Source of the DNA: Squalus acanthias
Taxonomy: Eukaryota
Direction of reading: 5' to 3'
Length of the DNA: 64,000 nt
NCBI GenBank assembly: GCA_030390025.1
Contig: CM059431.1
Span: 157,854,001-157,918,000, forward strand
Position numbers and translations under genes: made by a program. The first letter of the stretch is position 1. Every line of letters starts with the position of its first letter. Below are positions 1 to 64,000 of this stretch, piece after piece. The notes beneath the pieces are model-generated. The model was not told the DNA's origin, did not search any database, and was given only the letters and a program-made list of their open reading frames with translations.

Positions 1-3000
1 GAGTCAATGGCACTCACTCTAATCTTTCTCCCCAGTCCATCTCCAGAACCAGTGTGTATCTGAGTCAATGGGACTCTCTCTGATTTTTCTACTCGTTGCA
101 TATCCAGGACCAGTGTGTATCTGAGTCAATGGGACAATTTCTGACCTATCTCCCCTGTCCATCTCCAGGACCAGGGTCCATCTGTGACAATGGGACTCTC
201 TCTGACCATTCTCCCAGGACCATATCCAGGACCAGTGTGTATCTCAGTCAATGGGACTCTCTCTGACCTTTCTCCCCAGTCCATCTCCAGGGCCAGTGTT
301 CATCTGAGTCAATGGGACTCTCTCTGACCTTTCTGCCCTGTCCATCTCCAGTACAAGTGTCCATCTGTGACAATGGGACTCTCTCTGACCATTCTCCCAG
401 GACCAACTCCAGGACCAGTGTGTATCTGAGTCAATGGGAATCTCTCTGACCTTTCTCCCCAATCCATCTCCAGGACCAGTTTGAATCTGAGTCAATGGGT
501 CTTTCTCTGACCTTTCTCCCCGGTCGATCTCCAGGACCATTGTGTATCTCAGTCAACAAGAATCCCTCTGATCTTTCGTCCCGGTCCATCTCCGGGACCA
601 GTGTGTATCTGAGTCAATGGGATGCTCTCTGATATTTCTACCCGGTCCAACTCCAGTACCAGTGTCCATCTGTGTCAATGGAACTCTCTGGGACCTTTCC
701 CCCCTGTCCATCTCCAGGACCAGCGTGTATCTGAGTCAATGGGACTCTCTCTGACCTTTCTCCACGGTCTATCTCAGGGACCAGTGTGTAGCCAGGTTAA
801 TGGGACTCTCTGTAACATTTCTACACGGTTCATCTCCAGGACCAGTTTGCATCTGACTCAATGGGAATCTCTCTGACGTTTCTCCGCAGTCCATCTCCAG
901 GTAAAGTGTTTATCTGAGTCAATGGGTCTCTCTCTGACATTGGCCCCAGTCTATCTTCAGAACCAGTGTGCATCCGAGTCAATGGGACTCTCTCTGACAT
1001 TTCCCCCCGTCCATCTCCAGGACCAGTGTGTTTCTGAGTAAATGGGACTCTCTCTGACCTTTCTCCCCGGTCCATCTCCAGGACCAGTGTGTATCTGAGT
1101 CAAATGGGACTCACTCTGACCTTTCTCCTCTGTCCATCTCCAGCACCAGAGTCCATCTGTGACAATGGAGCTCTCTCTGACCATTCTCCCAGGACCATAT
1201 CCAGGACCAGTGTGTATCTGAGTCAAGGGGAATCTGTCTGACCTTTCTCCCCAGTCCATCTCCAGGATCAATGTGTCTCTGAGTCAATGGGTTTCTCTGA
1301 CCTTTCTCCGCAGTCCATCTCCAGGGCCGGTGTTTATCTGAGTCAATGGGACTCTCTCTGACCTTTCTGCCCTGTCCATATCCAGGACAAGTGTCCATCT
1401 GTGACAATGGGACTCTCTCTGACCATTCTCCCAGGACCATCTCCAGGACCATTGTGCATCTGAGTCAATGGGACTCTCTCTGACCTTTCTCCCCAATCCA
1501 TATCCAGGACCAGTGTATATCTGAGTCAATGGGACTCTCTCTGACCATTCCCCCGGGACCATATCCAGGACTAGTGTGTATCTGAGTCAATGGGACTCTC
1601 TCTGACATTTCTCCCCAGTCCATCTCCAGGACCAGTGTTCATCAGTGTCAATGGGACTCTCTCTGTCCTTTCTGCCCTGTCCATCTCCAGGACCAGTGTG
1701 TATCTGAGTCAATGGGACTCTCTCTGACCTTTCTCCCCGGTCCATCTCCAGGACCAGTGTGTATCTCAGTCAATCGGACTCTCTCTGACCTTTCTCCCAG
1801 ATCCACCTCCAGGATCAGTCTGTGTCATTGGGACACTCTGGGACGTATCTCCCCTGTCCATCTCCAGGATCAGCGTGTATCTGAGTCAATGGGACTCTCT
1901 CTGACCTTTCTCCATGGACCATTTCAGGGACCAGTGTGTAGCCAGGTTAATGGGACTCTCTGTGTCATTTCTACCCGGTTCATCTCCAGGACCAGTTTGC
2001 ATCTGACTTACTGGGAATCACTCTGACCTTTCTCCGCAGTCCATCTCCAGGTAAAGTGTTTATCTGAGTCAATGGGACTCTCTCTGACATTTTCCCCTGT
2101 CTATCTCCAGAACCAGTGTGCATCCGAATCAATGGGACTCTCTCTGACATTTCCCCCCGTCCATCTCCAGGACCAGTGTGTTTCTGAGTCAATGGGACTC
2201 TCTCTGACCTTTCTCCCCGGCCAATCTCCAGGACCAGTGTGTATCTGAGTCAATGGGACTCTCTCTGACATTTCTCCCCGGTCCATCTCCAGGACCATTG
2301 TCTATCTCAGTCAAAGAGAATGTCTCTGATCTTTCGCCCCCGTCCATCTCCAGGACAATTATGTATCTGAGTCAATGGCACTCACTCTAATCTTTCTCCC
2401 CAGTCCATCTCCAGAACCAGTGTGTATCTGAGTCAATGGGACTCTCTCTGATTTTTCTACTCGTTGCATATCCAGGACCAGTGTGTATCTGAGTCAATGG
2501 GACAATTTCTGACCTATCTCCCCTGTCCATCTCCAGGACCAGGGTCCATCTGTGACAATGGGACTCTCTCTGACCATTCTCCCAGGACCATATCCAGGAC
2601 CAGTGTGTATCTCAGTCAATGGGACTCTCTCTGACCTTTCTCCCCAGTCCATCTCCAGGGCCAGTGTTCATCTGAGTCAATGGGACTCTCTCTGACCTTT
2701 CTGCCCTGTCCATCTCCAGTACAAGTGTCCATCTGTGACAATGGGACTCTCTCTGACCATTCTCCCAGGACCAACTCCAGGACCAGTGTGTATCTGAGTC
2801 AATGGGAATCTCTCTGACCTTTCTCCCCAATCCATCTCCAGGACCAGTGTGTATCTGAGTCAATGGGACTCTCTCTGACCTTTCTCCCCTGTCCATCACA
2901 AGGTCCAGTGTGTATCTGTGTCAATGGGACTCTCTCAGAACTTTCTCCCCGGTCCATCTCCAGGACCAGTGTGTATCCGAGTCAATGGGACTCTCTGTGA

Positions 3001-6000
3001 CCTTTCTCACCGGTCCATCTCCAGGACCAGTGTGTATCTGAGTAAATGGGACAATCTCTGACCTTTCACCCCTGTCCATCTCCAGGACCAGTGTCCATCT
3101 GTGACAATGGGACTCTCTCTGACCATTCTCCCAGGACCATCTCCAGGACCAGTGTGTATCTGAGTCAATGGGACTCTGTCTGTCCTATCTCCCCAGTCCA
3201 TCTCCAGGATCAATGTGTCTCTGAGTCAATGGGTTTCTCTGACCTTTCTCCGCAGTCCATCTCCAGGGCCGGTGTTTATCTGAGTTAATGGGACTCGCTC
3301 TGACCTTTCTGCCCAATCCATCTCCAGGACCAGTGTATATCTGAGTCAATGGGACTCTCTCTGAGCATTCCCCCGGGACCATCTCCAGGACCAGTGTTAA
3401 TCTGTGTCAATGGGACTCTCTCTGTCCTTTCTGCCCTGTCCATCTGCAGGACCAGTGTGTATCTGAGTCAGTGGGACTCTCTCTGACATTTCTCCCAGGT
3501 CCATCTCCAGGACCAGTGTGTATCTCAGTCAATGGGACTCTCTCTGACCTTTCTCTCCGATCCACCTCCAGGGCCAGTTTGTATCTGAGTCAATGGGACC
3601 CCTCTGTGACCTTTCTCACCGGTCCATCTGCAGGACCAGTGTGTATCTGAGTAAATGGGACAATCTCTGACCTTTCTCCCCTGTCCATCTCCAGGACCAG
3701 TGTCCATCTGTGACAATGGGACTCTCTCTGACCATTCTCCCAGGACCATCTCCAGGACCAGTGTGTATCTGAGTCAATGGGACTCTGTCTGTCCTATCTC
3801 CCCAGTCCATCTCCAGGATCAATGTGTCTCTGAGTCAATGGGTTTCTCTGACCTTTCTCCGCAGTCCATCTCCAGGGCCGGTGTTTATCTGAGTCAATGG
3901 GACTCGCTCTGACCTTTCTGCCCAATCCATCTCCAGGACCAGTGTATATCTGAGTCAATGGGACTCTCTCTGAGCATTCCCCCGGGACCATCTCCAGGAC
4001 CAGTGTTAATCTGTGTCAATGGGACTCTCTCTGTCCTTTCTGCCCTGTCCATCTGCAGGACCAGTGTGTATCTGAGTCAGTGGGACTCTCTCTGACATTT
4101 CTCCCAGGTCCATCTCCAGGACCAGTGTGTATCTCAGTCAATGGGACTCTCTCTGACCTTTCTCTCCGATCCACCTCCAGGGCCAGTTTGTATCTGAGTC
4201 AATGGGACCCCTCTGTGACCTTTCTCCCCGGTCCATCTCCAGGACCAGTGTGTAATTGAGTCAATGGGAATCTCTCTGACCTGCTCCCCGGTCCATCTCC
4301 AGGACCAATGTTCATCTGAGTCAATGGGACTCTCGCTGACCTTTCTCCCCAGCCCATCTCCAGGACCGGTGTGTATCTCAGTCAATGGGACTCTCTCTGA
4401 ATTTTCTTCCAGTCCATCTCCAGGAAAAGTGTTTATCTGAGTCAATGGGATCTCTATGACCTTTCTTCCCGGTTCATCTCTGGACCAGTGTGCATTTGAG
4501 TTAAAGGGGCTTTCTCTGACATTACTCGCGGTCCATCTCCAGGACCAGAGCATTTTAAAGGAGACTTTCTCTGACTTTTCACCCGGGTCCACCTCCAGGA
4601 CCAGTGTGTATCTGAGTCAAGTAGACTCTCTCTGACCTTTCTCCCCCGACCATCTCCAGGACCAGTGTATATCTGAGTCAATGGGAGACTCTCTGACCTT
4701 TCTCCCCAGTCCATCTCCAGGACCAATGTGTATCTGAGTCAATGGGACTCTCTGACCTTTCTCCCCAATCCATCTCCAGGACCAGTGTTTATCAAAGTCA
4801 ATGGGACTCTCTCTGACCTTTCTCCCCGGTCCATCTCCAGGACCAATGTGTATCTGAGTCAATGGGACTCCATCTGACCTGTCTACCGTTCCATCACCAG
4901 GACCAGTGTGTTTATCGGATTCAATGTGACACTCTCTGGCCTTTTTCCCCGGTCCATCTCCAGGACCAATGTTTATCTGAGTCAATGGGTCTATCTCTGA
5001 CCTTTCTCACCAACCCATCTCCAGGACCAGTGTGTATCTCAGTCAATGGGACTCTCTCTGACTTTTCTCCCAAGTCCATCTCCAGGAAAAGTGTTTATTT
5101 GAGCAAATGGGACTCTCTATGACGTTTCTTCCCGGTTCATCTCAGTACCAGTGTGCATCTGAGTTAAAGGGGCTTTCTCTGACATTTCTCGCGATCCATC
5201 TCCAGGACCACTGAATTTTAAAGGAGACTTTCTCTGACTTTTCACCCTGGTGCACCTACAGGACCAGTGTGTATCTGAGTCAAGTAGACTCTCTCTGTCC
5301 TTTCTCCCCAGACCATCTCCAGGACCAGTGTGTATCTGAGTCAATGGGAGACTCTCTGATCTTTCTCCCTGGTACATCTCCAGGACCAATGTGTATCTGA
5401 GTAAATGGGACTCTCTCTGACCTTTCTCCCCAATCCATGTCCAGGACCAGTGTTTATCAGAGTCAATGGGACTCTCTCTGACCTTTCCTCCAGGACCATC
5501 TCCAGGACCAGTGTGTATCTGAGTCAATGGGACTCTCTCTGACCTTTCTCTCCAGTCCATCTCCAGGACGAGTATTCATCTGTGTCAATGGGTCTCTCTC
5601 TGTCCGTTCTGCCCTGTCCATCTCCAGGACCAGTGTGTATCTGAGTTAATGTCACTCTCTCTGACCTTTCTCCCCGGTCCATCTCCAGGACCAGTGTGTA
5701 TCTCAGTCAATGGGACTCTCTCTGACCTTTCTCCCCGGTCCATCTGCAGGACCAGTTAGTATCTGAGTCATTGAGACTCTCTCTGACCTTTCTCCCCGGT
5801 CCATCTCCTGGACCAATGTGTATCTGAGTCAATGTGACTCTCTCTGACCTTTCTCCCCGGTCCATCTGCAGGACCAGTTAGTATCTGAGTCATTGAGACT
5901 CTCTCTGACCTTTCTCCCCGGTCCATCTCCAGGACCAATGTGTATCTGAGTCAATGTGACTCTCTCTGACCTTTCTCCCGTTCCATCTCCAGGACCAGTG

Positions 6001-9000
6001 TGTTTATCTGATTCAATGTGACACTCTCTTGCCTTTCTCCCCGGTCCATCTCCAGGACCAGTGTTTATCTGAGTCAATGGATCTATCTCTGACCTTTCTC
6101 CACAGCCCATCTCCAGGACCAGTGTGTATCTCAGTCAATGGGACTCTCTCTGACTTTTCTCCCCAGTCCATCTCCAGGAAAAGTGTTTATTTGAGTCAAT
6201 GGGACTCTCTATGACCTTTCTTCCCGGTTCATCTCAGGACAAGTGTGCATCTGAGTTAAAGGGGCTTTCTCTGACATTTCTCGCGATCCATCTCCAGGAC
6301 CACTGAATTTTAAAGGAGACTTTCTCTGACTTTTCACCCAGGTGCACCTCCAGGACCAGTGAGTATCTGAGTCAAATAGACTCTCTCTGAGCTTTCTCCC
6401 GACCATCTCCAGGACCAGTGTCTATCTGAGTCAATGGGAGACTCTCTGACCTTTCTCCCCAGTCCATCTCCAGGACCAGTGTGCATCTGAGTCAATGGGA
6501 CTCTCTCTGACCTTTCTCTCCAGTCCATCTCCAGGACGAGTATTCATCTGTGTCAATGGTTCTCTCTCTGTCCGTTCTGCCCTGTCCATCTCCAGGACCA
6601 GTGTGTATCTGAGTTAATGTCACTCTCTCTGACCTTTCTCCCCGGTCCATCTCCAGGACCAGTGTGTATCTCAGTCAATGGGACTCTCTCTGACCTTTCT
6701 CCCCGGTCCATCTGCAGGACCAGTTAGTATCTGAGTCATTGAGACTCATCTGACCTTTCTCCCCGGTCCATCTCCAGGACCAATGTGTATCTGAGTCAAT
6801 GTGACTCTCTCTGACCTTTCCCCCCGGTCCATCTGCAGGACCAGTTAGTGTCTGAGTCATTGAGACTCTCTCTGACCTTTCTCCCCGGTCCATCTCCAGG
6901 ACCAATGTGTATCTGAGTCAATGTGACTCTCTCTGACCTTTCTCCCGTTCCATCTCCAGGACCAGTGTGTTTATCTGATTCAATGTGACACTCTCTTGCC
7001 TTTCTCCCCGGTCCATCTCCAGGACCAGTGTTTATCTGAGTCAATGGATCTATCTCTGACCTTTCTCCACAGCCCATCTCCAGGACCAGTGTGTATCTCA
7101 GTCAATGGGACTCTCTCTGACTTTTCTCCCCAGTCCATCTCCAGGAAAAGTATTTATTTGAGTCAATGGGACTCTCTATGACCTTTCTTCCCGGTTCATC
7201 TCAGGACAAGTGTGCATCTGAGTTAAAGGGGCTTTCTCTGACATTTCTCGCGATCCATCTCCAGGACCACTGAATTTTAAAGGAGACTTTCTCTGACTTT
7301 TCACCCGGGTGCACCTCCAGGACCAGTGAGTATCTGAGTCAAATAGACTCTCTCTGAGCTTTCTCCCGACCATCTCCAGGACCAGTGTCTATCTGAGTCA
7401 ATGGGAGACTCTCTGACCTTTCTCCCTAGTCCATCTCCAGGACCAATGTGTATCTGAGTCAATGGGACTCTCTCTGACCTTTCTCCCCGGTCCATCTCCA
7501 GGACCAGTTAGTATCTGAGTCAATGGGACTCTCTCTGACCTTTCTCCCCGGTCCATCTCCAGGACCAGTGTGTAATTGAGTCAATGGGACTCTCTCTGAC
7601 CTTTCTGCCCAGCCCAACTCCAGGACCAGTGTGTATCTCAGTCAATGGGACTCTCTTTGACTTTCCTCCCCAGTCCATATCCAGGAAAAGTGTTTATCTG
7701 AGTCAATGGGTCTCTCTATGATCTTTTTTCCCGGTTCATCTCAGGACCAGTGTGCATCTGAGTTAAAGGGGCTTTCTCTGACATTTCTCGCGTTCTATCT
7801 CCAGGACCACTGACTTTTAAAGGAGACTTTCTCCACTTTTCACCCTGGTGCACCTCCAGGACCAGTGTCTAGCTGAGTCAATGGGACTCTCTCTGACCTT
7901 TCTCCCCGGTCCATCTCTTGGACCAGTGTGTATCTGAGTCAATGGGACTCTCTCTGTCCTTTCTCCCCGGTTCATCTCCAGGACCAATGTGTATCTGAGT
8001 CAATGTTACTCTCTCCGACCTTTCTGCCCGGTCCATCTCCAGTACCAGTGTGTATCTGAGTCAATGTGACTCTCTCTGACCTTTCTCCCGTTCCATTCCA
8101 GGACCAGTGTGTTTATCTGATTCAATGGGACTCTTTCTGGCCTTTCTCCCCGGTCCATCTCCAGGACCAGTGTTCATCTGAGTCAATGTGACTATCTCTG
8201 ACCTTTCTCCCCAGCCCATCTCCAGGACCAGTGTATATCTCAGTCAATGGGACTCTCTCTGACTTTGCTCCCCAGTCCATCTCCAGCAAAAGTGTTTATT
8301 TGAGTCAATGGGACGCTCTATGACCTTTCTTCCCGGTTCATCTCAGGACCAGTGTGCATCTGAGTTAAAGGGGCTTTCTCTGACATTTCTCGCGGTCCAT
8401 CTCCAGGACCACTGAATTTTAAAGGAGACTTTTTCTGACTTTTCACCCGGGTGCACCTCCAGGACCAGTGTGTATCTGAGTCAAATAGACTCTCTCTGAC
8501 CTTTCTCCCCAATCCATGTCCAGCACCAGTGTTTATCTGAGTAAATGGGACTCTCTCTGACCTTTCTCCCCAATCCATGTCCAGGACCAGTGTTTATCAG
8601 AGTCAATGGGACTCTCTCTGACCTTTCCTCCAGGACCATCTCCAGGACCAGTGTGTATCTGAGTCAATGGGACTCTCTCTGACCTTTCTCTCCAGTCCAT
8701 CTCCAGGACGAGTATTCATCTGTGTCAATGGGTCTCTCTCTGTCCGTTCTGCCCTGTCCATCTCCAGGACCAGTGTGTATCTGAGTTAATGTCACTCTCT
8801 CTGACCTTTCTCCCCGGTCCATCTCCAGGACCAGTGTGTATCTCAGTCAATGGGACTCTCTCTGACCTTTCTCCCCGGTCCATCTGCAGGACCAGTTAGT
8901 ATCTGAGTCATTGAGACTCTCTCTGACCTTTCTCCCCGGTCCATCTCCTGGACCAATGTGTATCTGAGTCAATGTGACTCTCTCTGACCTTTCTCCCCGG

Positions 9001-9470
9001 TCCATCTGCAGGACCAGTTAGTATCTGAGTCATTGAGACTCTCTCTGACCTTTCTCCCCGGTCCATCTCCAGGACCAATGTGTATCTGATCAATGTGACT
9101 CTCTCTGACCTTTCTCCCGTTCCATCTCCAGGACCAGTGTGTTTATCTGATTCAATGTGACACTCTCTTACCTTTCTCCCCGGTCCATCTCCAGGACCAG
9201 TGTTTATCTGAGTCAATGGATCTATCTCTGACCTTTCTCCACAGCCCATCTCCAGGACCAGTGTGTATCTCAGTCAATGGGACTCTCTCTGACTTTTCTC
9301 CCCAGTCCATCTCCAGGAAAAGTGTTTATTTGAGTCAATGGGACTCTCTATGACCTTTCTTCCCGGTTCATCTCAGGACAAGTGTGCATCTGAGTTAAAG
9401 GGACTCTCTCTGAGCTTTCTCCCCGGTCCATCTCCAGGACAAGTTTGTATCTCAGTCAATGGGCCTCTCT
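1..9470. repeat. 61-bp satellite array (~155 monomers) with higher-order block duplications; runs off the left edge
   Basis: GAGTCAATGG recurs at 1, 62, 123 and onward. Consensus is close to TGAGTCAATGGGACTCTCTCTGACCTTTCTCCCCGGTCCATCTCCAGGACCAGTGTGTATC. All ORFs here are repeat translations. Confidence 0.97.
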
Positions 9471-9479
9471 CTCTCTCTC

Positions 9480-21807: not shown

Positions 21808-22718
21808 CTACTTAAAGGAAGCTTTAGTTAAATTTTTCATTTTTTTAACCAATATCAGAATTATTGTCCAAGGAAATTTCACCACCTTCTTCAGCTCTTC
21901 CCTGAATTTAGTTGGTGTAGCTGCGTAAATACACGTGTTTGTACAGGAGCTCAAATACATGAGCAGATATCCGCTTCGAGTGGCGATGTACGCAGGAGAT
22001 GTATAATCGGGTCGGTGAAAAACGGCAAGGGTGTTAATTACAAAACTCCCGGCAGATGTCAGACACAACAACATAAAACTGCCCGATACAGTGAATAGTA
22101 AAATGATGGATTTCCTTCGGTTCACCATCTCTGGATCGCTCGGAATCTCACAGCTGTGAACCCGGAGTCCCCTGCGGGCTCCACTGGCAGCTAAAATACG
22201 TCTGATGGTCAAACAATTAAATAGCAATATCAAAACAAATGGAAGACATGGGTTTAAAATATATACTAAGAGAAGGCGATTAATAAAAGACCACACTGGG
22301 GAGGAAACCCCAGGGAACATTGTTGATTATTTGTTTGTGTTCAAAGGCAAACAAACGTGAGATGTTCTCTAAATAAACCGGGACAGAGATCGTTGTTATA
22401 ACCGCGGCCGCAGTTCTCATTGTGCAATAGTTTGTTTTAAATTCATGACAACATACAGCTACAAATCGGTCAAATGTGAAGGAGACGGTAAACCGCACCG
22501 ACATATCCATGCTGGTCGAATTCATGTACACCATGAACTTATTAACGGCAGTGTATGACAGGCATGAATATGGGAAGTGTTTACTGAAAATGTGAAATAC
22601 GATTACATTGATGATCATGACCAGTAGATCTGCTGTTGCCATGGCCACCATGTAGACCGAGATACATTTGGAAAGGCTGCAGTTTCCTATGGAGAGAATC
22701 ACCATTATCAGTAGGTCG
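21808..22718 (-). pseudogene. Class A GPCR, GPR139/GPR142-like, main coding exon; frameshifted
   Basis: Reads VILSIGNCSLSKCISVYMVAMATADLLV...FTFDRFVAVCC, then changes frame near 22300 into YILNPCLPFVLILLFN...RRKSIILLF...SCTNTCIYAAT. The expected splice acceptor reads AC (22719-22720). Confidence 0.88.
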
Positions 22719-22774
22719 GTGTAAAAAAGAGGGACACCAGGTCAGTAACAGGGATACTCAGATAAATCTCACAG

Positions 22775-25449: not shown

Positions 25450-25950
25450 TATGGTAAATTCATATTTTGATACCAATGTTTGTTTACATCGGTATTTTAT
25501 GTATATATATGTGTATGTGCAGACATATATAGAAAATAATAGCACACTTCTTGTAAAAAAAACAAGGTAATAATACATACTGATAGGCAAAAAAAACACA
25601 TTCGCCACCAAATGTAATACACCATAAAGTCTGACCATAACAATATGAAATGTCCAGACATGACAAACAGGAAAATAACGGATTTCCTTCTGCTCTCCAT
25701 CTCTGGGTCTCTGCGACTCTGCACACTGCTCTGACCCCGGAGACTCCTGCTGGCTCCGCTGGCCAATAAAATGTGTCTAACGGTTAAAGCATTGACCAGC
25801 AGAATCCGAACAAATGGAATCTCCGGGTTTAGAATGTAATGAAGGAACTTGTTTTCTGCCCGGACCCGCGTTTCCCCAACATCGTGTGTTACACGACGAA
25901 ACCAGGAGTCGTTCAGAACCCATATTTACCTATGAATATAAAATACCAGC
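25450..25950 (-). pseudogene. Second GPR139-like GPCR fragment (about TM5-TM7 only)
   Basis: FLHYILNPEIPFVRILLVNALTVRHILLASGASRSLRGQS...DPEMESRRKSVIFLF aligns with 21808-22270. No recognisable 5' half. Confidence 0.82.
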
Positions 25951-26274: not shown

Positions 26275-29200
26275 AGATAGAATGACAGCACAAAGACACT
26301 CTTCGCAAACAGAACGCGAAAATAACAGTCAAATCCACTGTGGAAAACGAAGATCTCGAACATTTTTTTCTGCATGAAAAATATACTAATGTAACGATTG
26401 TTGCTTCCCTGCGTGAGCGGAGACTGGTAGAAAATGAACTGAAGGCCGGAGGTAGAGAGCGTGAAGAATTACAGAGGAAATACATCGAAAACGAACTGGA
26501 AGAGATAAAGCTGGATCAATTGTTGAGTTTCGCTAAAACAGGCAGTTCTGGGACAACCGTGTTAATTGGGGCCGCAGGGATTGGGAAAAGCACCTTGATA
26601 CAGAAGATAATCAGTGACTGGGCCGTAGGGAAAATATACAAACAGTTTAAAGTTGTCTTTCCTTTAAATGTTCGAAACTTAAATTTAATTGAAGTAAAAA
26701 CATGTCTAAATTGCCTGATCCTGGATTCCTACCCCAATTTCGAAAATGAGTTGGAACATCTGTGGAATGAACCAGGAAATATATTGTTTATATTTGATGA
26801 TTTCGATCAATTCCAGCGAAACATCGATTTATCAGATACTCAGAGAAACAACGACACCGAAAATCCGTTTTTCGATCCCAAGTGCTGCTGTGATGTGTCA
26901 GACATCGTGCGCTGTCTCATACAGAGAGAGTTGCTCAAAGGCTGCTCAGTACTGATCGCAAGCCGGCCTTGGAAACTGGAGTCAGTGGGAAAGGCAAACA
27001 TAAATCAATCGCTCGAAATCCTGGGTTTCCCATGTCAGAACATAAAATGATATTTTCATCGTTATTTTGAAGATGAACAATTTACTAGAGTTTTAATCGA
27101 GTACATTGAGCAGAATGAGACATTGCACACCATGTGCTATAATCCTCTTTACTGCTCGGTCCTCGCTTCATTATTAGAGTCACACCGGTCACAAGGAGCG
27201 GGGGAGAGACCATTGTCCGTCACAACCAGCACACAGGTGTTCTCCACGTACGTCACAAGCCTTTTAGAGAGGTGCGGCTGTGACGTGAAACCTCTCGCGA
27301 CATGTTGCTGAAACTGGGGATTTTGGCCTACGAGGGTATTTGCAAGAAAACCGTTGTGTTAAAAACCGAACAATTATATCGCCACAGACTCGAACTTTCC
27401 AATTTTTTCTCTGCGTTTATGATGGAATTTCCAGAGAAAGATCTTTGCAGTTTTGTCTACACATTCAGTCACTCCGCCGTGCAGGACTTTGTCGCTGCAC
27501 TTATGAAAAGACTAAGCACGCCAGGATATGGACTGGGAGTATTGCTCAATGAAGGGTTCACGTGCATTGACGTGAGATTCAATATATTTTCACGTTTTCT
27601 TATCGGTCTCTCCTCACGGAATTCAACTGATCAGCTTGAAAGACAATTGGGAGAATTTCCTTCTGAAGCATTCCGGTGTGTGTCGGATTTGCTCACAGAA
27701 CATGTCAAAAGACGTGTTAAGAACTTGGAAGATGTGCAAAGCCAAAGGACATTCTTCAAGATATTGCACTATTTCCTTGAATTTGGAGACATAAAACTGA
27801 TGAAGGCCGCCATAACACCGATAAAGATAATGAAATTTACAGAGTGTCCTCTTAAACCTTCTGAGTGTGCGGTTCTTTAAAACGCACTAATGGCCGTTGA
27901 ACTGATTGAAGAGTTGAATCATAGTTCCTGTGGAATACAAGATGAAGGCATCCATCAGCTGGAGCTCGTGCTACAAAAATGTAAAATACTCAGGTAATTC
28001 ACCGATTACGTTAAATATCATTATCAAATACTACCGTTAAACTGGCACGTGAGATAATATAAGGTCAAGTAAAAACATTCACTGAATTCGATCAAATAAT
28101 GAACACATTCTGTAATTCCAATCACTGCTGTGCTCAATGGAACCGTAACAGACGGCAACGGAGTGTCTGTTCAGTTAATGCCTGAAAGTGCTGGGTTGCT
28201 CATTTAATTAGATCAGATTGGATGCTGGCAACATTACATCCGAATCAAGCGCACTCTTTGCACAACGTGGGAATCTAAATTTATCAGTAAGATGTATTCC
28301 CCTATACTTTAATCATGATATATTTGATCGCTGTTGGAAAAAAAAAACACCATTTCACAGATTCACAGAATCTTACAGCATAGAAGGAGGCCGTTCATCC
28401 CATCTTAACTGTGCCGGCTTTTCGAAAGAGCTATCCGATTAGTCCCAGTCCCCTGTTCTTTCCCCATAGCCCTGCATATTTATTCCCTTTAAGTATTTCT
28501 ACAAGTTCCTTTGGAGAGCTACTATTGAATCTGCTTCCACCAGCCTTTCAGGCAGAGCATTCCAGAACATAACAACTCGCTCCATAAATGTATTTCCTCA
28601 TGTCACCTCTGGCTTTTTAGCCAATTACCTTAAATCGGTGTCCTCTGCTTACTGACACTTGTGCCACTCATACATTGTCAGCAACAACATATCTGTTTTA
28701 TTTTAAACTGTAAACAAATATCATTGTTATATTTTGCAATTTGAATAATTTATAAGCGAGTTTTAACTGTACTTTTCTAAAATTACCAATTCCTCGATCA
28801 GATCAGATTTGCCAAATGAATAATGTTGTTGAGATCAATGATGCCAAGTGAAGGAGTTAGATTTGGGTTCGCGACTGCGATTCCTCAAATTCTGAATACT
28901 CTTTCCAGCCGCATTGCTGTGCCAAGGCATCATCAGAGGTCCGGAGGGAAGGAAAGTGAGAGGCAATGTCACTCCACCTGCTTTCATGCACATTCGAGCG
29001 ATTTCTTACAATCCCCATCAGTGGATTCTCCAATAGACTTGGGGATGATTTAAGGGCATTTGTGAGCCTCAGTGCATCAAATAGATAAATTTCCTAAAAT
29101 AGAGACAAGATCAAAGGGACGGTCTCTAATTTAACCCTGAATTCGCCTATTAATGAAGAGAATCGTCCTGTGAGAGACATATGTCGTAGATTCCACTCCG

Positions 29201-30371: not shown

Positions 30372-31304
30372 TGGAATGTTTATCATGAAGATTGTTTGAT
30401 TCAAATATGTTAATTAGGTGATACTCTATAGAATCAGTTGCATTTTTGAACAATGCGGTCTGCGCTACAGTGCGGAGACCAAGTGTTGAATCAGTAATCG
30501 CTTTGGTGAACACATCTGTTCTCTCCGCAAGTGTGACCCTGAGCTTCCGGTCGCTGTGCAATTTAATTCTTTGTACTCGGGAAATTAAGCTCATCAGAAG
30601 CTCGAGGAATAGCACATCATCTTTTGATTAGACACTTTGGCACCTATCGGACTCAACACTGAGATCAACAATTTTAGATAATAGCCACTGCTCCCATTTT
30701 TTACGACAGCAGGTGCCGGTAATGGTTCTGCTGTTCAATGAGGAGAATCCCGCTGATGTTGTCATAGAATTCAGAGCCGGAGCTCAGGTCTCAGCTCGCT
30801 GCGATTGGTGATGGAAACCTGCACCTTGTGACTCAGAGGCAAGAATGTTGCCGTGAAGTCGAATTCCTGAAGTGAACAGGAGTTATTACTAGTGGTGGAC
30901 AGATTTAATTCAGTCCCAATTTTAAAGGCGTGCATTCTGTCTGTATTTTTCTATTAATATTTTGATTTGATATTATATTTGAAAAATAATAACAAAACTA
31001 TAGATAATTTAGCTTGCAGAGAGATAGAGTTCACTGATGCCAGGAGATTTCTCTTCAAGAAGTTGGACAATGTAATCGGGAGGCGTTGCAGCGCCGCCAC
31101 TGGGCAGAGGGTGTAATTAAAGCTTAAGAACTCTCTCCACAGCGTCAATTAGAAATCTGGATCTCAGAATGTATAATGTACCTCTATAAGAATGTTTTAT
31201 ATATTGCAAAAACATCTAATACACGAATTATTGAAATAATAACAAAATAAACGCCATTTGCAATTGAGACTGAATTACATGTGCGTGCAATGATATATTT
31301 AAAG

Positions 31305-31582
31305 AATGAGAAGTCGCACAACACCAGGTTATAGTCCAACAGATTTATTTAATTTTACAAGCTTTCGGAACAGTTCGCTCCTTCGTCAGGTAAGTTAGCA
31401 GTGAGAGAATCTCCCAGAATTCACAATTTAAACACAGACAAAATATATTCAAATCTTTCCCTACATCAAAGAGCACAGCCAAGACAATGAGGTGTGTCCC
31501 AGGGGGTCCAACGTGTCAAACCACCTGCTGGCTGCATATCCTGTCAATCTGTGTAGGTTCTTGTGTTAGCATCTCCACATCA
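31305..31582 (-). mobile_element. Penelope-like element remnant: inverted pLTR arm plus the last ~15 nt of the sense tail
   Basis: Reverse complement of ~47557-47813, followed by GCATCTCCACATCA. TSD ATATTTAAAGAA at 31295-31306 and 31585-31596. Confidence 0.82.
31355..31393 (-). ncRNA. Minimal type I hammerhead ribozyme motif
   Basis: Minus strand reads UUAC-CUGACGA-A-GGAGC-gaacu-GUUCC-GAAA-GC-UU-GUAA. Confidence 0.78.
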
Positions 31583-32547
31583 TGATATTTAAAGAAAACA
31601 TAGAAAAATAGTAGCAGGAGTAGGCCATTCGGCCCTTCGAAACTGCTCCGCCATTCAATATGATCATGGCTGATCCTCTATCTCAATATCATATTCATGC
31701 TCTCTCCCCATACAGCTTGATGCCTTTTGTGTCTAGAAATCTATCTATCTTCTTCTTAAATATATTCAGTGATTGGCCTCCACAGCCTTCAGTGGTGGAG
31801 AATTCCACAGCTTGACCACACTCTGAGTGAATAAGTTTCTCCTCATCTCAGTCCTAAATGTCCTACCCCGTATCCTGAGACTGTGACCTCTCGTTCTAGA
31901 ACACCCCCCACCCCAGCCAGATAAAACAGCCTCCCTGCATCCAGTCTGTCTAGCCCTGTCAGAATTGTATACATTTCAATGAGATCCCCTCTCATTCTTC
32001 TAAACTCTAGTGAATACAGGCGTAGTCGACCCAATCTCTCCTCATACGACAGTCCTGCCATCCCAGGAATCAGTCTGGGGAACCTTCGCTGCACTCCCTC
32101 TATGTCAAGTATATCCTTTCTTAGGTAAGGTAAGGTAAATTGCTCACAGCACTCCAGGTGTGGTCTCACCAAGACCCAGTACATCTGTAGTATGACATCC
32201 TTGCACCTGTGCTCAACTCCTCATGCAATGAAGGCCAACATAACATTTGCCTTCGTAACTGCTTTCTGCACCTGCATGTTTGCTTTCAGTGACAAGGTCA
32301 CCCAGGTCCCTTTGTCCATCAGCATTTCCCAATCTAGCACCATTTAAAAAATACTCGACCTTTCAGCTTTTTCTACCGAAGTGGATAACTTTACATTGAT
32401 TCACGTTATACTGCGTCTGCCATGAATTTGCCCACTCACTCAACTTGTCTAATTCGCCTTGAAGCCTCTTTGGAACATCCTCACAACTCACAATCCCAAC
32501 TAGTTTCGTGTCGCCAGCAAACTTGGAAATATTACATTTGGTTCCCT

Positions 32548-46590: not shown

Positions 46591-47363
46591 CCCTGGGTAT
46601 ACTTCAGGAAAGAAGGATAGGCTAGGGTCTCTTTGCCAAAAATCTGTCCTTTATACTAACGCTTGGAGTATAAGAAATACATTGAGTGTATTTGAGGCTG
46701 AAATACAGATTACAGTGTGTCATTTGTTGGCCATTACTGAGAGATCGCTGCAAGATGCTTAGGATTAGGATTTAAATATTCTCGGTTATAATGTCTTTAG
46801 TAAGGATAGGAAACTGGAAGAGGAGGATTGGTAACCTTACTGATTTAATATACTATTACAACATGAGTAAGAGAGGATATAGGTAGGAGAAATCAATCAG
46901 CTGACTGTTTCTTTAGCAATTACCAATAAGAGAGGACGTAAAACTATAATGGGAGTTGTCGACACACCTCCTGATAGCAACAATGGAGTGGTAGAATGTG
47001 CAGTTTCAAATATTAGAGAAGTTTGTTGCAAAATAAGAGTTGTTTTAATTGGAGAATATAATTTTCCGAAAGATTAAGAAGATCAGAGTGGGTCAAGTTA
47101 GAATTTATCCAGTGCATTAATGGTAGGTTTCTTTGGAGCAATGTGCTCGAGAAACAACAAGAGTGCAGTATTTGCAAGAATTAGTAATAAGTAATCAGCC
47201 AGTCTTAGTTAATAATCTAACAGTAAGAGAACATTCATCTAACAGTGATCATAATATGATAGAATTCAATGTTAGTTTTCAAAAGGAGAAATTAACACTG
47301 TCACTAAGATTCTAATGAGAAGTCGCACAACACCAGGTTATAGTCCAACAGATTTATTTAATT

Positions 47364-47401
47364 TTACAAGCTTTCGGAGCTATCGCTCCTTCGTCAGGTA
47401 A
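47364..47401 (-). ncRNA. Minimal type I hammerhead ribozyme motif (inverted arm)
   Basis: Exact reverse complement of 47726-47763. Confidence 0.8.
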
Positions 47402-47725
47402 GTTAGCAATGAGAGAATCTCCCAGAATTCACAATTTAAACCCAGACAAAAATCGGGTTCATGTCACGATACAGAACGTGACTTGGCATCATGGCCGGTC
47501 TTCCCAGGTGTTTTTTTTGGTTTTTTTGGGGGGTTTTTTTTGTTTTTTTTTTAAAAACACAAGAACACAAATTGACAGGATATGCAGCCAGCAGGTGGTT
47601 TGACACGCTGGACCCCCTGGGACACATCTCATTGTCTTGGCTGTGCTCTTTGTTGTAGCGAATAATGTGAATAGATTTTGTCTGGGTTTAAATTGTGAAT
47701 TCTGGGAGATTCTCTCATTGCTAAC

Positions 47726-47763
47726 TTACCTGACGAAGGAGCGATAGCTCCGAAAGCTTGTAA
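47726..47763 (+). ncRNA. Minimal type I hammerhead ribozyme motif
   Basis: UUAC-CUGACGA-A-GGAGC-gaua-GCUCC-GAAA-GC-UU-GUAA; predicted cleavage after 47759. Confidence 0.8.
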
Positions 47764-48174
47764 AATTAAATAAATCTTTTGGACTATAACCTGGTGTTGT
47801 GCGACTTCTCATTTTTGTCCACCCCAGTCCAACGCCGGCATCTCCACACTAAGATTCTAGGTCGTGGTACGGGTCGTGGTATGGACAGAGACTGACGACA
47901 GCAAAATGGCCCAACCTATTACCTGGAAAAGCTACAGATAATCAGTGGCAGATGTTGAAAACAAAATTCAGCTTAATGCAGGACCAGTACATACCCCGAA
48001 GTCGCAAGTGCTCTACTTGTAAAAAAAACCCTTAATGATCGACAAAAGAGTTTCGAGATAACGCAAAATTAAAGGAAAGAGCATGCAAAAGTGTAAAGAA
48101 TAGTGTAATTCCAGGGATCAGCATAAAGAAGAGCAAATTAAGACAAAAAGGAGCTGTTAAAAGGGAAGAATATA

Positions 48175-51605: not shown

Positions 51606-51952
51606 GGTGACTCGACATCGTTGTCAGTCTTTCCAGTTTAAAAAAAACCACAAACCCCCCCCCCCCAAAAAAAAAACCCAAAAATAAGTTAAAAGCTCAA
51701 CTGCAGACGGCAGGATTTGACACGTTGGACCCCCTGTGACCCTACTCATTGTCTTAGCTGTACTCATGTGTCTTTGATGTAATGCCTCCCTAAAAGATTG
51801 TATCTCTGCAGACAAATTGCTTACTGTGTTTATATAGTGTGTAATAGATTCCCTCATTGTACCTTTACCTGACGAAGGGGCAACAGCTCCGAAAGCTCGT
51901 AATTTTAAATAAAACTGTTGGACTATAACCTGGTGTTGTGCGACTTCTCATG
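51606..51952 (+). mobile_element. Penelope-like pLTR of a diverged subfamily
   Basis: Colinear with 47475-47812 and ends at the same CGACTTCTCAT boundary. Confidence 0.8.
51865..51902 (+). ncRNA. Minimal type I hammerhead ribozyme motif
   Basis: UUAC-CUGACGA-A-GGGGC-aaca-GCUCC-GAAA-GC-UC-GUAA. Confidence 0.8.
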
Positions 51953-52253
51953 TTTGTTTATTTAGAAATAGAGAAATACAAGGGAATACAACAAATGAAA
52001 CGGGGGACGGGGAATCACAACCACATCAGATTGTATTTGATACGGAAATGTAATGATTAATTATTCAATCCTTTCTATTTTAGCTGCTGAGTTTGGATGA
52101 TGTGGTTGAATGCAGGTCGCCCTCTCAGGATTACAGCTGGGTGTAGAACATCACTGACTGATGGAACTATATCCTCTGCCTGCTGCCTGATTCGCGCCTT
52201 AAATGCTGTCGGTTGTCTGGATCCACTTAAATGAGATTGTGCCTCAAACACAC

Positions 52254-54252: not shown

Positions 54253-56859
54253 GTTTACTGTTTCCTATTGTACTGTTTCCTATGTTTCCTGTTTCTGATG
54301 TTTCCGTTTTCCTATGTTTAATGGTTCCAGCTTTTCGTGTTTTCTTTTTTATACTTTTTCCGATGTTTCCTGTTTCCTACATTTACAGTTTCCTATATTT
54401 ACTGTTTCCTACATTTCCTCTATATCTTGTTTTAGAGTTTCCTATCTTCAACGTTTCCTATGTTTAATGTTTCCATTGTTCTCTGTGACCTATGTTTAAT
54501 TTTGCCAATGCTTCCTAATTCCTATGTTTACTGTTTCCTGTATTTCATCTTTTATTTTTTCACTGTTTTCTATTTTCAATATTTCCTATGTTTAATTTTC
54601 CCTACATTTACTCTTTCCCATGTTTCCCGATTCCTACATGTCCTGTTTTTCTTTTTTTTTACTGTTTTCTATGTTCAACGTTTTCTATGATTAATGTTTC
54701 CATTGTTTCCTTTTTCCTATGTTTATTTTGCCAATGCTTCCTATTTCATATGTTTACTATTTCCTGTATTTACTACTTTCTTGCTTGATTGTTTCCTACG
54801 ACCAATATTTCCTATGTTTAACGTTTCCAGTATTTCCTGTTTCTGATGTTTAATGTTTCCCATGTTTCCCAATTCCTACCTTTCCAATGTTTCCTATTTT
54901 CTTTGTTGTCTGTTTCTTATGTTTCCACTTTTCTATATTTTCTGTATTTCCTATATTTCCTATATTTACTATGTTTCCTAAGTTTAATGTTTCCTATATT
55001 TACTTATTCCTATGTTTCCTGTTTCCGAAGTTTACTACTTCCTATGATAATATTTCCTATGTTTCCTATTTCCTAAGCTAACTGTTTCCTAAATTTCTGC
55101 TTTTCTTTTTTCACTGTTTCCTTTGTTTCCTCTGTTTCCTGTTTTCTATTTTTCCTATTTTCTATGTTTCCTGTTCCTTACGTTTCCTGTTTACTATGTT
55201 TCCTGTTTCCTATGTTTACTGTTTCATATTGTTCCTGTTTTTAATGTTTCGTTTTCCTATGATTACATTTTCATATATTCACTTTTTCTAATTTTTTCTG
55301 TTTACTATGGTCCAATATTTCTTATATTTCCATTTGCCTATGTTCCCTTTACTGATTCATATGTTTACTATTTCCTACTTTTAGTCTTTTCCCTGTTGCC
55401 TTTTCCCTATGTTTACTTTTTCCTATGTAGCATGTTTCCTATGTTTACTGTTTCCTATCTTTCCTGATTCCTATTTTCGATGTTTCCTCTTTCCTACGTT
55501 TACTGTTTCTTATGTTTTGTGTTTCCTATGTTTACTGTTCCCTATGTAATTGTTTCCTATGAATCCTGTTTCTTATGCTAACTTTTTCCTGTAGTTTTTA
55601 CTTCCTTTTTCCTGTATACTGTTTTCACTATCATATTTTGCCTTTTTCATAAGTTCCATGTTTCCTATGTTTAAGGTTTGTTATAGTTTCTTTTCCTTAG
55701 GATTCCTATTTCATGTTTGCTATGTTTTCCATATCCTATGCTTATTATTTCGTATATTTACTATACCCCATGTTTCCTGTTATCTATGTTTACTCTTTCC
55801 TCATCCCTATATTTACTGTGTCCTATGTTTACTGTTTCTTAAGTGACCTATTTTCTATGTTTATTATTTCGTATCATACAATCGTGGAAATTGACGCCAC
55901 AGAAGGAGGCCATGGTGTCTGCACCATTTTTCCTTTGTCTTCGTTTTATTGCTTACTATGTTTCCTGTTTCCGATGTTTACATTTTCTTTTGTTTCCTGC
56001 TCCCTATGTTTACAGTCTCTAATTTTGCCTCTTTCCTATATTCAGTGTTTCCTGTTCTTTATTATTTTTATTTCCTGATTGCTGTCGACTGTTTACTGTA
56101 TGATATCTTTCCTTTTTCATAAGTTCCATGTTTCCTAGGTTTCTTGTAGTTCCTTTTCCCTAGGATTCCTATTTCCTGTTCCCTATGTTTTCCGTATCCT
56201 ATGCTTATTATTTCGTATATTTAATAAATCCTGTTTCCTGTTCCCTACTTTTACTATTTTCTATTCCCTATATTTTCTGTATCCTATGTTTACTGTTTCT
56301 TTTGTTACTTATTTTCTATGTTTATTCTTTCTAATCATACAGCCGTGGAAATTTACGCCAGAGAAGGAGACGTTGGTGTCTGTACCTTTTCTCCTTTTTC
56401 TTCATTTTACGGATTAACATGTTTATGTTTCCTATGTTTCCTTTTGCCTATGTTTACTGTCTCTTATGTTGCCTGTTTCCTATGTTTACTGCTTCCTATG
56501 TTATACATTTCCTCTCTTTCCTGTACACTCCGTTTAATTATTCCAATGTTTCATATGTATCCTGTTAACGGTGTTTCCTCTTTTTTCTGTTTACTGTTTT
56601 CCGTTTCATTTGCTTCCTGTTTCCTATATTTCATGTTTCCTATGTTTAATGTTGACGATGTTTTGTCTGTCCTATAATTTCTATTTTCGTTTTTTACTGT
56701 TTCCTATGGTTCTTGTTTCCTTTGTTACAGGTTTATTATTTTTCCGATTTACTATGTTTAATGTTTCATATTTTTCCTTTTATATATGTTTAATCGTTCC
56801 GCAGCTTCTTATGTTTCCTCTTTATGTTTCCTGGTTGCTATGTGTCCCGTTTCATACAG

Positions 56860-58300: not shown

Positions 58301-59825
58301 ATATGTTTCACGTTTCCTATATTTCCTGTTTCCTATATTTCATGTTTCCTATATATACTGTTTCTTATATTCCTTCTTTCCTATGGTTCCTGACTCCTAT
58401 GCTTAATATTTCTATATTTCCTATTTCCTAAGTTTAATGTTTCCTATATTTCCTCTTTACCTTTTTTGATGTTTCCTATGTATACGTTTTGCTATGTTTA
58501 CTGTTTCCTATGTTTACTGTTTCATATTTTTATTGTTGCCTTTTTTCTTGCTTCCTAAGTTCAATGTTTCGAATGTATATTGTTTCGTATTTTAAAAATT
58601 CCTACGATTAATGTTCCTTATATTTACTATTAACTACGTTTCCAGTCTCTAATATTTCCTCTTTGTTATATTTGCTTTTTCCCATGTTTACTGTTTCCGA
58701 TGTTTACTCTTCCGTATGCTTCTTATGTTTCCTCTTTCCAATGTTTAATGTATCTTTTGTTTCCTATAACCTATGTTTACTATTTCTTCCGTTTCGTGTT
58801 CCTTATATTTCATGTTTCCTATATTTACTGCTTCCCATGTGTCCTGTTTCCTTTATTTACCGATTACTATGTTTATTTTCTTTCCTGTTTCCTATGTTTA
58901 ATATATTCTTATGTTTACTGTTAACTATATTTCCTGTGTCTTATATTTCCTGATTTCGATGGTTTTATCTTTTTATTGTTTCTTCTGTTTCCCGTGTCCA
59001 ATGTTGACTGTTTCCTAAATTTCCTACAGTTTCCTATCTTCACTGTTTCTTATATAAACTGTTCACTGTGGCCCATGTTTCTTATATTTCCATTTGCCGA
59101 TGTTCCCTTTTCCCATATTTACTGTTTCTTATGTTTATTATAAATATGTTTCATGTTTGCTTTTTCCCCTGTTCCCTACGTTTATTCAGTCGTCTGTTGC
59201 CTGTTCCCTATGTTTACTGCTTCCTATGTTGCATGTTTCCTGTATTTATTGTTTTTATGTGTCCTATGTTTACTGTTTTTTATGTTTGCCGTTTGCTATG
59301 ATTAATGTTCCCTGTGTTTACTGCTTCCTCTATTTATATTTTCCTATGTTTATTTTTTCCTATATTTCCTGCTTCCAATGATAACTGTTTCTTATGTTTC
59401 CTGTTGCCTATGTTTAATGTTTTCTGTGTTTAATGTTTCTTATATTTACGGTTCCCTATATTTACTGTCTGCGATGTTGCCTGTTTCCTATATTACATGT
59501 TCCTTATGTTCTCTGTTTCACTTGGTTCCTATTTTCAATATTTACCGTTTCATTTATTTCTTGTTGCATATCTTTCATGCTTCCCATGTTTCTTCTTTCC
59601 TATGTTTACGGTTTCCTATTATCCTGTTTCCTATATTTCCTGTTACTTATGTTTAATGTCTCCTACGTTAACTTTTTCCATTGTTAACACTGTTCTTTAT
59701 TTTTTGTTTCCTATATTTCCTGTTACTTAGTTTTACTGTTTCCATTGTTTCCTTTTTCCTTTGTTTACTGTTTCCTATACTTCCTGTTTCATTTGTTCCC
59801 TCTTTCCAGTATTCACTGTTCCATT

Positions 59826-62523: not shown

Positions 62524-64000
62524 GTGTTTAAACTTTCCTACGTTTAAAGTTCCCTATAATTGTTGTTTCCTCTGTTTACTTTTCCGTTATTTAAAGTTAC
62601 TATTTTTACAGTTTCTTCTGTTTCCCCTTACCTCTGCTTCGTATTTCTTTTGTATCCTCTTTCCTATGTTTATTGTTTCCTTTGTTTAATATTTCTTATG
62701 TTTACTATTACCTAAGTTTCCTGTTTCCGATGTTTCCTGTTTCCTAGGATTATTTGATGTTTCCTATGTTTACTGATTCTTATGTTTCATGTTTCATATG
62801 ATTTAGTGATTCTTATATATCCTGCTTCCTCTGATTAATATTCCCTATGATTCCTGTTCGTGCTGATTCCTGTCTCTGCTGATTCTGTTTCCCATGTTTA
62901 CTGTTTCCTCTGTTTCCTCTTTTCTTTATTTTTTACTGTTTCCTTACGTTACATTTTGTTTAATATCCCATTTCCTATAACTTCGTTGTCCTGTATTTCC
63001 GCTTTTAGATGATTACTGTTTCCTCTGTTTCCTTTCTTTGTTACTGTTTCTCATGTGTCATGTTTCCAATGTTGACTCTTTCCTATATTTACATTTTAGT
63101 TTGTTTCCTCTCTCTTATATTTCATGTTTCCAAAATTTCTATTTCTTATATTTCCTGTTGGCTATGGTTACTGCTTCCTATAATTCCTCTTTCCTATATT
63201 TTCTGTTTCGTCTGTTTCCTGTGTCCTATGATTTGCCATTCCAACGTTTACACGTCCTTTAGTTTCCTCTTTCACTTCTTTGCTCTTTCCTATGTTTCCT
63301 GTTTCTTATGTTTCTTTTGCCTATATTTACATTATGTTACATGTACTGTTTCCTTAGATTAATGTTTCTTATGTTCCATCTTCCCTATATTTCCTGAATC
63401 GTATGTTTCCTTTTTTCCTATTTATCCTGTGTGTTATCTTGTCCGTTTCCAATGTGAATTGTTTCCAATGTTTACATTTTCTTATATTTCCTATTTTCTA
63501 TGTTTACTGTTTCGTATAGTTACTGTTTCTGTGATTTACTGTTTCCTATGTTTCCTATTTCGTACGTTTCCTGTTTACTATATTTCCTGTTTCATATATT
63601 TCCTGTTGACTATAGTTACAGTGTGTTATGTAGACTGTGTTGTATTTTTAATGTTTCTTATGTTCCATCTTTCCTATGTTTAAGTTTATTATGTTTACTT
63701 TTTCCTGTGTTTCCTGTTTCCTATGTTTACTGTTCATTATGTGTCCTGTTTGCATTGTTTACTGTTTCGTATATTCCTTTTTCCTTCTTTTGCTCTTTAC
63801 AGTATTGAAGCTTTCCTATCTTCCAGCTTTATATGTTTCTTGTTTCCTATATCTGCTGTTTCTGGTGTATCCTGTTCCCTGTTTAAAGTTTATGTTTGCT
63901 GTTTCCTAAGTTTACTGTTTCCTATGCTTACTATTACTTTTGTTTACTGTTTCATTATTCTACTGTTGGTAATGTTTCATGGACGGTATTTTGCGACCCC

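Follow-up and report, generated by a model that had tools for sequence, protein, structure and literature searches.

The window, a 64,000-nucleotide stretch of Squalus acanthias DNA, holds three truncated, ORF-less insertions, at 31302-31584, 47314-47848 and 51702-51957, which carry four short hammerhead motifs (Table 1). A tblastn search of the window with the protein of the parent element, described below, gave no match to its ORF. Across positions 1-9472, a 61-bp unit is repeated in tandem 156 times (81% matches), with more arrays just upstream (L038), and three degenerate arrays at 54253-55590, 58302-59790 and 62534-63953 share one 16-bp unit. An NLR-type gene lies in pieces at 26286-27880 (+), where separate frames encode a NACHT domain (E 1.9e-29), a NOD2 winged helix and an NLRC4 HD2 domain. 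Broken rhodopsin-family GPCR-like frames are present at 21808-22741 (-) and 25497-25925 (-), one piece of which matches 7tm_1 at E 1.1e-6.

Table 1. Hammerhead motifs and the insertions that carry them, in window coordinates.
Feature	Position	Strand	Basis or remark
Minimal type I hammerhead, copy 1	31355..31393	-	loop II of 5 nt (GAACU); one G-U in stem II
Minimal type I hammerhead, copy 2	47364..47401	-	same sequence as copy 3, whose insertion it shares on the inverted arm
Minimal type I hammerhead, copy 3	47726..47763	+	window sequence and descriptor match
Minimal type I hammerhead, copy 4	51865..51902	+	sister subfamily; C17; stem II GGGGC/GCUCC
Long arm, 31k insertion	31302..31567	-	3' UTR and hammerhead, without tail; 92.5% to full copy L032
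Second arm, 31k insertion	31569..31584	+	16 nt, tail end
Target duplication (13 bp), left copy	47302..47314	.	window sequence
Minus arm, 47k insertion	47314..47451	-	138 nt, without tail; head-to-head with plus arm
Plus arm, 47k insertion	47452..47848	+	blastn, 92.7% to full copy L032; no ORF
TATA-like box, putative promoter element	47687..47693	+	aligns with TATATAT box of sister subfamilies
Initiator-like site, putative; predicted transcription start A 47717 (+/-1)	47715..47721	+	subfamily junction cluster
AATAAA, candidate poly(A) signal	47769..47774	+	10-15 nt past the cut; intact in 75/76 copies
Optional 35-nt tail	47814..47848	+	directly precedes the ORF start codon in full copies
Target duplication (13 bp), right copy	47847..47859	.	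window sequence
Single arm, sister subfamily, copy 4	51702..51957	+	without tail; 73% to full copy L032

The preliminary description had reported four minimal hammerhead motifs, and all four read as described. A hammerhead search with a generic type I descriptor across the 64 kb found exactly these four. When bases 10,501-64,000 were shuffled 60 times with a third-order Markov model, the descriptor gave a mean of 0.017 matches, none with a stem II of at least 5 bp. Copy 3 consists of stem I (UUAC/GUAA), CUGACGA, an extra A, stem II (GGAGC/GCUCC), GAAA and the palindrome AGCU, and the cut is predicted after 47759 (U17). An Rfam search of the window gave four matches at E<=10, with the hammerhead among none of them; this result is not counted against the hammerhead identity, because the minimal variants lie outside the Rfam models. 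The four motifs are minimal type I hammerheads (min-HHRs), likely self-cutting, of the terminal repeat of a Penelope-like element (PLE).

Copies 2 and 3 are the arms of one insertion, as had been proposed: two head-to-head arms span 47314-47848 within a 13-bp target duplication. The plus arm corresponds to the last ~370 nt of the element, comprising the 3' UTR, the hammerhead and the 35-nt tail, and the 40 top-scoring matches to the 138-nt minus arm elsewhere in the 3.7-Gb genome have 99-100% identity. In the plus arm, the TATA-like box lies 30 nt above the predicted start, and a GU-rich stretch (47793-47801) lies beyond the AATAAA. The 31k copy is likewise an inverted pair, with a near-identical target duplication of 15-17 bp at 31290-31306 and 31582-31596. 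Copy 4 with its 3' flank (51800-51960) is found again at C7:157470849 (-) and on contig C2044, which suggests either a segmental duplication or an alternative haplotype.

Copies 1-3 form one subfamily group (93% over 253 nt). The three insertions, which the preliminary description had counted as three independent observations, are therefore not independent as regards selection. Within the window, the stem variation is one-sided only, the wobbles being transitions, and stem I does not vary. Selection therefore cannot be shown from the four window copies by themselves. For the family as a whole, the idea of a selected module is supported by the invariant core and two compensatory pairs.

The parent element is represented by a natural full copy, L032, with an 892-aa ORF. 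Its reverse transcriptase (RT) matches Pfam RVT_1 (E 2.6e-8), and the protein contains the DKG and YIDD motifs, a CHGNLCKTC linker at 753-761 and VYLIRC...YIGET. The C-terminal GIY-YIG assignment is by motif match (VYLIRC/YIGET), no Pfam GIY-YIG match being obtained at E<=0.001, and a PDB sequence search with the element protein gave no matches. The family thus has the single ORF with RT and C-terminal GIY-YIG of endonuclease-bearing (EN+) PLEs, a reading frame that the window copies lack. It also has, as CHGNLCKTC, the CX2-5CxxC linker between RT and EN that marks the Neptune and Nematis elements (PMC8557442). The 3' end of L032 carries the same hammerhead, and the post-cut sequence is repeated ahead of the ATG: in full elements, the 91 nt past the hammerhead cut equal the 91 nt preceding the ATG. 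Full elements have a copy of the hammerhead at each end, the 3' one coming after the 3' UTR, a location in the pLTR of a PLE. Genome-wide, a degenerate hammerhead pattern gave 75,197 matches, as compared to 30 for the reversed-pattern control, and a 23-nt anchor 3' of the motif gave 99,980 exact matches. The element is a young, very abundant Penelope-like retrotransposon. Contigs of sequencing runs presumed to be RNA (X1, X5, X10, X11) contain the family in other organisms; such contigs do not reveal transcript ends, and among the matches listed none had a loose poly(A) end. A divergent second Penelope-type endonuclease end, with a Cx5CxxC linker and GIY-YIG-like, lies 2.5 kb beyond the window end (L039, 2513-3112, +).

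To describe the conservation of the hammerhead, we took the first 100 exact matches on contig C1 of the anchor, which was picked outside the motif; 24 were dropped, as they were truncated inside or below the motif, and the remaining 76 all parsed. These copies are mutually related, and thus are not 76 independent trials. Positions C3, G5, A6, A9, G12-A14, A15.1, G15.2, C16.2 and U16.1 are invariant in all 76, G8 is present in 75, and U4 is present in 71, with C in the other five. Position N7 is C in 33 copies, G in 30, A in 12 and U in one, N17 is U in 66 and C in 10 and never G, and the length of loop II ranges from 3 to 9 nt. The core CUGANGA ... GAAA ... UH, helices I and II and the type I topology were recognized in the four window copies and in the 76 genome copies. 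The extra A between positions 9 and 10.1 is present in 75 of 76, the remaining row being mis-registered by a 1-nt deletion, while the G10.1-C11.1 pair and the AGCU palindrome at 15.2-16.2, without a stable helix III, are present in all 76. The four additional traits given for min-HHRs by Cervera and De la Pena are thus all present. The outer pair of stem I is broken in 13 copies, so helix I is effectively 3 bp with an optional fourth.

Two stem pairs change on both sides, and do so genome-wide only: stem I pair 3 (C-G 50, U-A 24, U-G 2) and stem II pair 5 (C-G 70, U-A 4). A covariation test on eight aligned rows did not beat its shuffles, 44 of 500 reaching the observed value. The upstream flank is much more variable than the motif. 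The 3' flank equals the core in conservation, and the flank control that had been proposed accordingly needs care; within this flank, the AATAAA past the cut is intact in 75 of 76 copies while the adjacent positions vary. Selection on the hammerhead at the family level is supported by the invariant core and the two compensatory pairs across subfamilies, as far as related sequences can speak to it. One subfamily carries a CCGACGA core (U4C; L110, L162, L164 and L177) with a compensated U-A atop stem II, in several insertions.

How are the copies made? Among 127 arms, 88 form 44 head-to-head pairs, and exactly one arm carries the tail in 43 of the 44. By analogy, this one-tail pattern matches the two internal RT starts and the two-strand extension of the Anolis element described below. 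Of 100 unbiased arms, 50 extend at least 120 nt upstream, and 14 have 5' ends 6-10 nt above C3, seven of them exactly at -7. Position -7 corresponds to the A in an initiator-like sequence (TCACTTC or TTACTTC), ~30 nt below a TATA box. Sister subfamilies account for the sharp peak at -7; the window's own subfamily has a wider cluster, in which three positions around A 47717 hold 56 of 73 loci (a hand count within a 9-nt search window).

The base that precedes these ends is also suggestive. An added G is what the copying of a cap leaves, as established for other retroelements. A purine followed by ACTTYACC gave 8,634 matches genome-wide. Among the first 100 listed, 37 are the native sequence of a subfamily, three have G before ACTTTACC, and the 60 with ACTTCACC divide into G 50 and A 10 (hand count). 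The control placed 2 nt lower (1,195 matches) divides into G 64 and A 36, which differs from the ACTTCACC split (Fisher p 0.011), although this control is itself G-rich. The junction G of L224 is absent from the target duplication; at 11 of 16 inspected G junctions, the G could also derive from the sister arm. The break-point pattern suggests that most copies were templated by capped, uncut RNA. Ends could also cluster here if RT stalled on the stems of the hammerhead itself.

In 26 of 31 ORF-bearing copies, a partial tandem of the EN+ PLE kind, the upstream cut site is intact and 18-751 nt more of the 3' end lie above it; the other five start past the cut, at +3, +16, +16, +66 and +67. None of the 31 ends at the predicted transcription start, at which simple cap run-off would predict some. 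We compared the two repeats within each of 19 insertions (20 loci, one without a 3' repeat): they differ by 0-3 substitutions in 18 of the 19 cases, as compared to means of 6-19 substitutions from the repeats of other insertions. Therefore, RT probably passed over one template a second time to give the upstream repeat, by strand transfer or on a circle.

We propose that the parent element is mostly copied from an uncut, capped template and that cutting by the hammerhead is a minor or regulatory event, a reading to which we assign a probability of about 0.7. RNA polymerase II would start at the initiator, 3-9 nt above stem I, directed by the TATA box ~30 nt higher. The capped RNA would begin with one hammerhead and end with a second after the ORF, and the AATAAA past the cut would serve as the poly(A) signal. 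The two terminal hammerheads could pair via their AGCU palindromes and cut slowly, probably with the assistance of a protein. Reverse transcription likely starts internally, ~55 and 91 nt past the cut, one start per target strand, which would produce head-to-head arms with a one-sided tail. RT would mostly copy uncut RNA, and thus insertion would not depend on cutting each time. RT that ran off at the cap would leave the short stubs; alternatively, RT would enter a second lap of the 3' end, leaving partial tandems.

Several other accounts of the same copies were weighed. A circular template, as proposed in PMC4209133, would arise by double cleavage and ligation into a unit-length circle, within which RT starts and runs in laps, so that the hammerhead is intact in every copy. 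The uncut junctions at 26 of 31 ORF starts, the near-identical repeats within an insertion and the variable length of the second laps (18-751 nt past the cut) all agree with this. However, a circle is endless and leaves the pile-up 7 nt above C3, with its excess of G, unexplained. We regard it as rather unlikely as a general template, although it could still serve for the long copies only. It is also possible, if doubtful, that the terminal repeat is organized as a retroviral-style U3-R-U5, the hammerhead filling a short terminal redundancy between the cap site and the poly(A) signal. RT starting near the RNA 5' end may then yield a strong-stop-like cDNA, which integrates as a stub or is transferred to the 3' repeat, and a dimer of the terminal hammerheads of one mRNA may remove the cap and the poly(A) signal together. 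If this holds, 100,000 genomic copy ends would record the cap and, faintly, the cut.

The cut itself might define the normal 5' end of the template, as an HDV-like ribozyme does in R2 (PMC6765202). Starts right at the cut gave 523 pattern matches, 28 of 30 inspected being true junctions, and starts at +3 gave 439, against control counts of 135 at -4 and 118 at +8. Yet after a rough flank-filter correction the starts at the cut amount to ~1-2% of ~100,000 arms, and, among the 100 unbiased arms, only two have their end in the 3 nt past the cut. In addition, ~9 of the 28 junctions are confounded by microhomology, as they agree with the complement of stem I in the sister arm. The -4 control misses some joins at the AAGCT palindrome, and the +8 control is limited to some subfamilies (5 of 20 inspected at +8 being a deletion variant). 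As about a third share microhomology and the controls are imperfect, the excess is only a hint of cut-started copies, and a cut-defined end as the rule seems very improbable. Improbable too is a motif that no longer cuts, being kept as a promoter-downstream element, as a protein-binding site or as a hitch-hiker in a young family. The 3' flank is conserved as strongly as the core, the U4C change occurs in at least three insertions, and Naiad elements thrive without canonical hammerheads (PMC8557442), all of which would suit such a motif. Against it, the variation occurs at positions that the chemistry tolerates (N7, N17 that is never G, the length of loop II) and in compensated pairs, and the Anolis counterpart does cut and is rescued by C3G/G8C (PMC11167929).

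Does the hammerhead act as a dimer? The preliminary description had considered cleavage probably dimer-dependent, a question that concerns the parent element and not the window relics. For the parent element, dimer dependence is plausible, based on the AGCU palindrome and on the literature, in which dimer cleavage of PLE hammerheads is attributed to Lunse et al. 2016 (as cited in PMC6765202). By nearest-neighbour calculation, the active (Forster-type) dimer has an energy of -18.7 kcal/mol, as compared to -21.4 for two monomers, and an inactive dimer with a 6-bp AAGCUU helix reaches -25.1 kcal/mol. The active dimer is thus geometrically possible, yet not the energy minimum. This modelled disadvantage fits two reports: min-HHR dimers have low activity in vitro (PMC4209133), and the Anolis hammerhead depends on protein (PMC11167929). 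In the window, a dimer in cis of copies 2 and 3 was considered and rejected, as they lie on opposite strands; since the 47k and 31k insertions are both head-to-head pairs, neither can form one. Because the arms are inverted, a read-through transcript of the 47k insertion would lock copy 3 into a hairpin, all 38 nt being paired with the other arm. Copies 3 and 4 lie on one strand, 4.1 kb apart, with an identical palindrome. The window copies are likely passive relics, of little importance in themselves.

The motif class has been known since 2014, when Cervera and De la Pena described the min-HHRs of metazoan PLEs (PMC4209133). The sections of that paper covered here mention no cartilaginous fish as a host. 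The hammerheads here share with those min-HHRs the type I topology, the palindrome at 15.2-16.2 without further helix III, the extra base 9/10.1, the G10.1-C11.1 pair, the short helix I, the pLTR location and the occurrence mostly as single motifs or close opposite-strand pairs. In contrast, helix II is 5 bp here and 7-8 bp in Schistosoma, and the ~75,000 matches here exceed the ~4,000 of coelacanth and ~9,000 of Xenopus given there, although the search methods differ.

A close known counterpart is PAc, a Poseidon element from Anolis carolinensis (Frangieh et al. 2024, PMC11167929). Its RT starts in vitro at two internal, tail-matching sites, and its hammerhead mutants do not block insertion in vitro. 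Common to PAc and the present element are the two tail-bounding internal RT starts (putative here), the extension of both target strands and uncut RNA as the main substrate. The PAc ORF begins inside the hammerhead, with RT start sites 111-118 nt into the ORF, while here the hammerhead and both putative RT starts precede the ATG and the protein has a Zn-finger-like linker. With the Neptune/Nematis-type EN+ PLEs (PMC8557442, PMC3846280), the present element shares the CX2-5CxxC linker, the C-terminal GIY-YIG, the partial tandems, the head-to-head arms and a one-end tail of 30-40 bp, and an Adineta pLTR has a TATA box and a TCACT initiator-like motif, as here; the insertions here have 13-17 bp target duplications, and the likeness to the Neptune clade is by linker motif. 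Non-LTR retrozymes, reported in one chondrichthyan genome, have type I hammerheads related to those of PLE pLTRs (bioRxiv 10.64898/2026.07.22.740005). They are head-to-tail tandem arrays, whereas the window copies are dispersed single or inverted stubs. A retrozyme reading was rejected, as two or more head-to-tail hammerhead units are absent and no tandem array covers the window copies.

Inverted arms and tails are likewise described for Penelope elements (PMC8557442, PMC3846280). Our literature search, limited to main texts and largely to journals open without subscription, returned nothing direct on a shark PLE hammerhead; it also returned nothing direct on cap or template-switch evidence in Penelope elements, and within that coverage the cap and cut clues were not found. 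The role of the hammerhead in Penelope elements is called unclear in PMC8557442. Here, the break points of ~100,000 copy ends can be compared with the predicted cap and cut sites, and these ends together with the young open-ORF copies make that role testable by counting and by simple RNA assays. By eye, many insertions seem to lie inside common repeats, CR1-like ones included, and often share the same flank words (flanks of L100-L129, L160-L219 and L330-L349).
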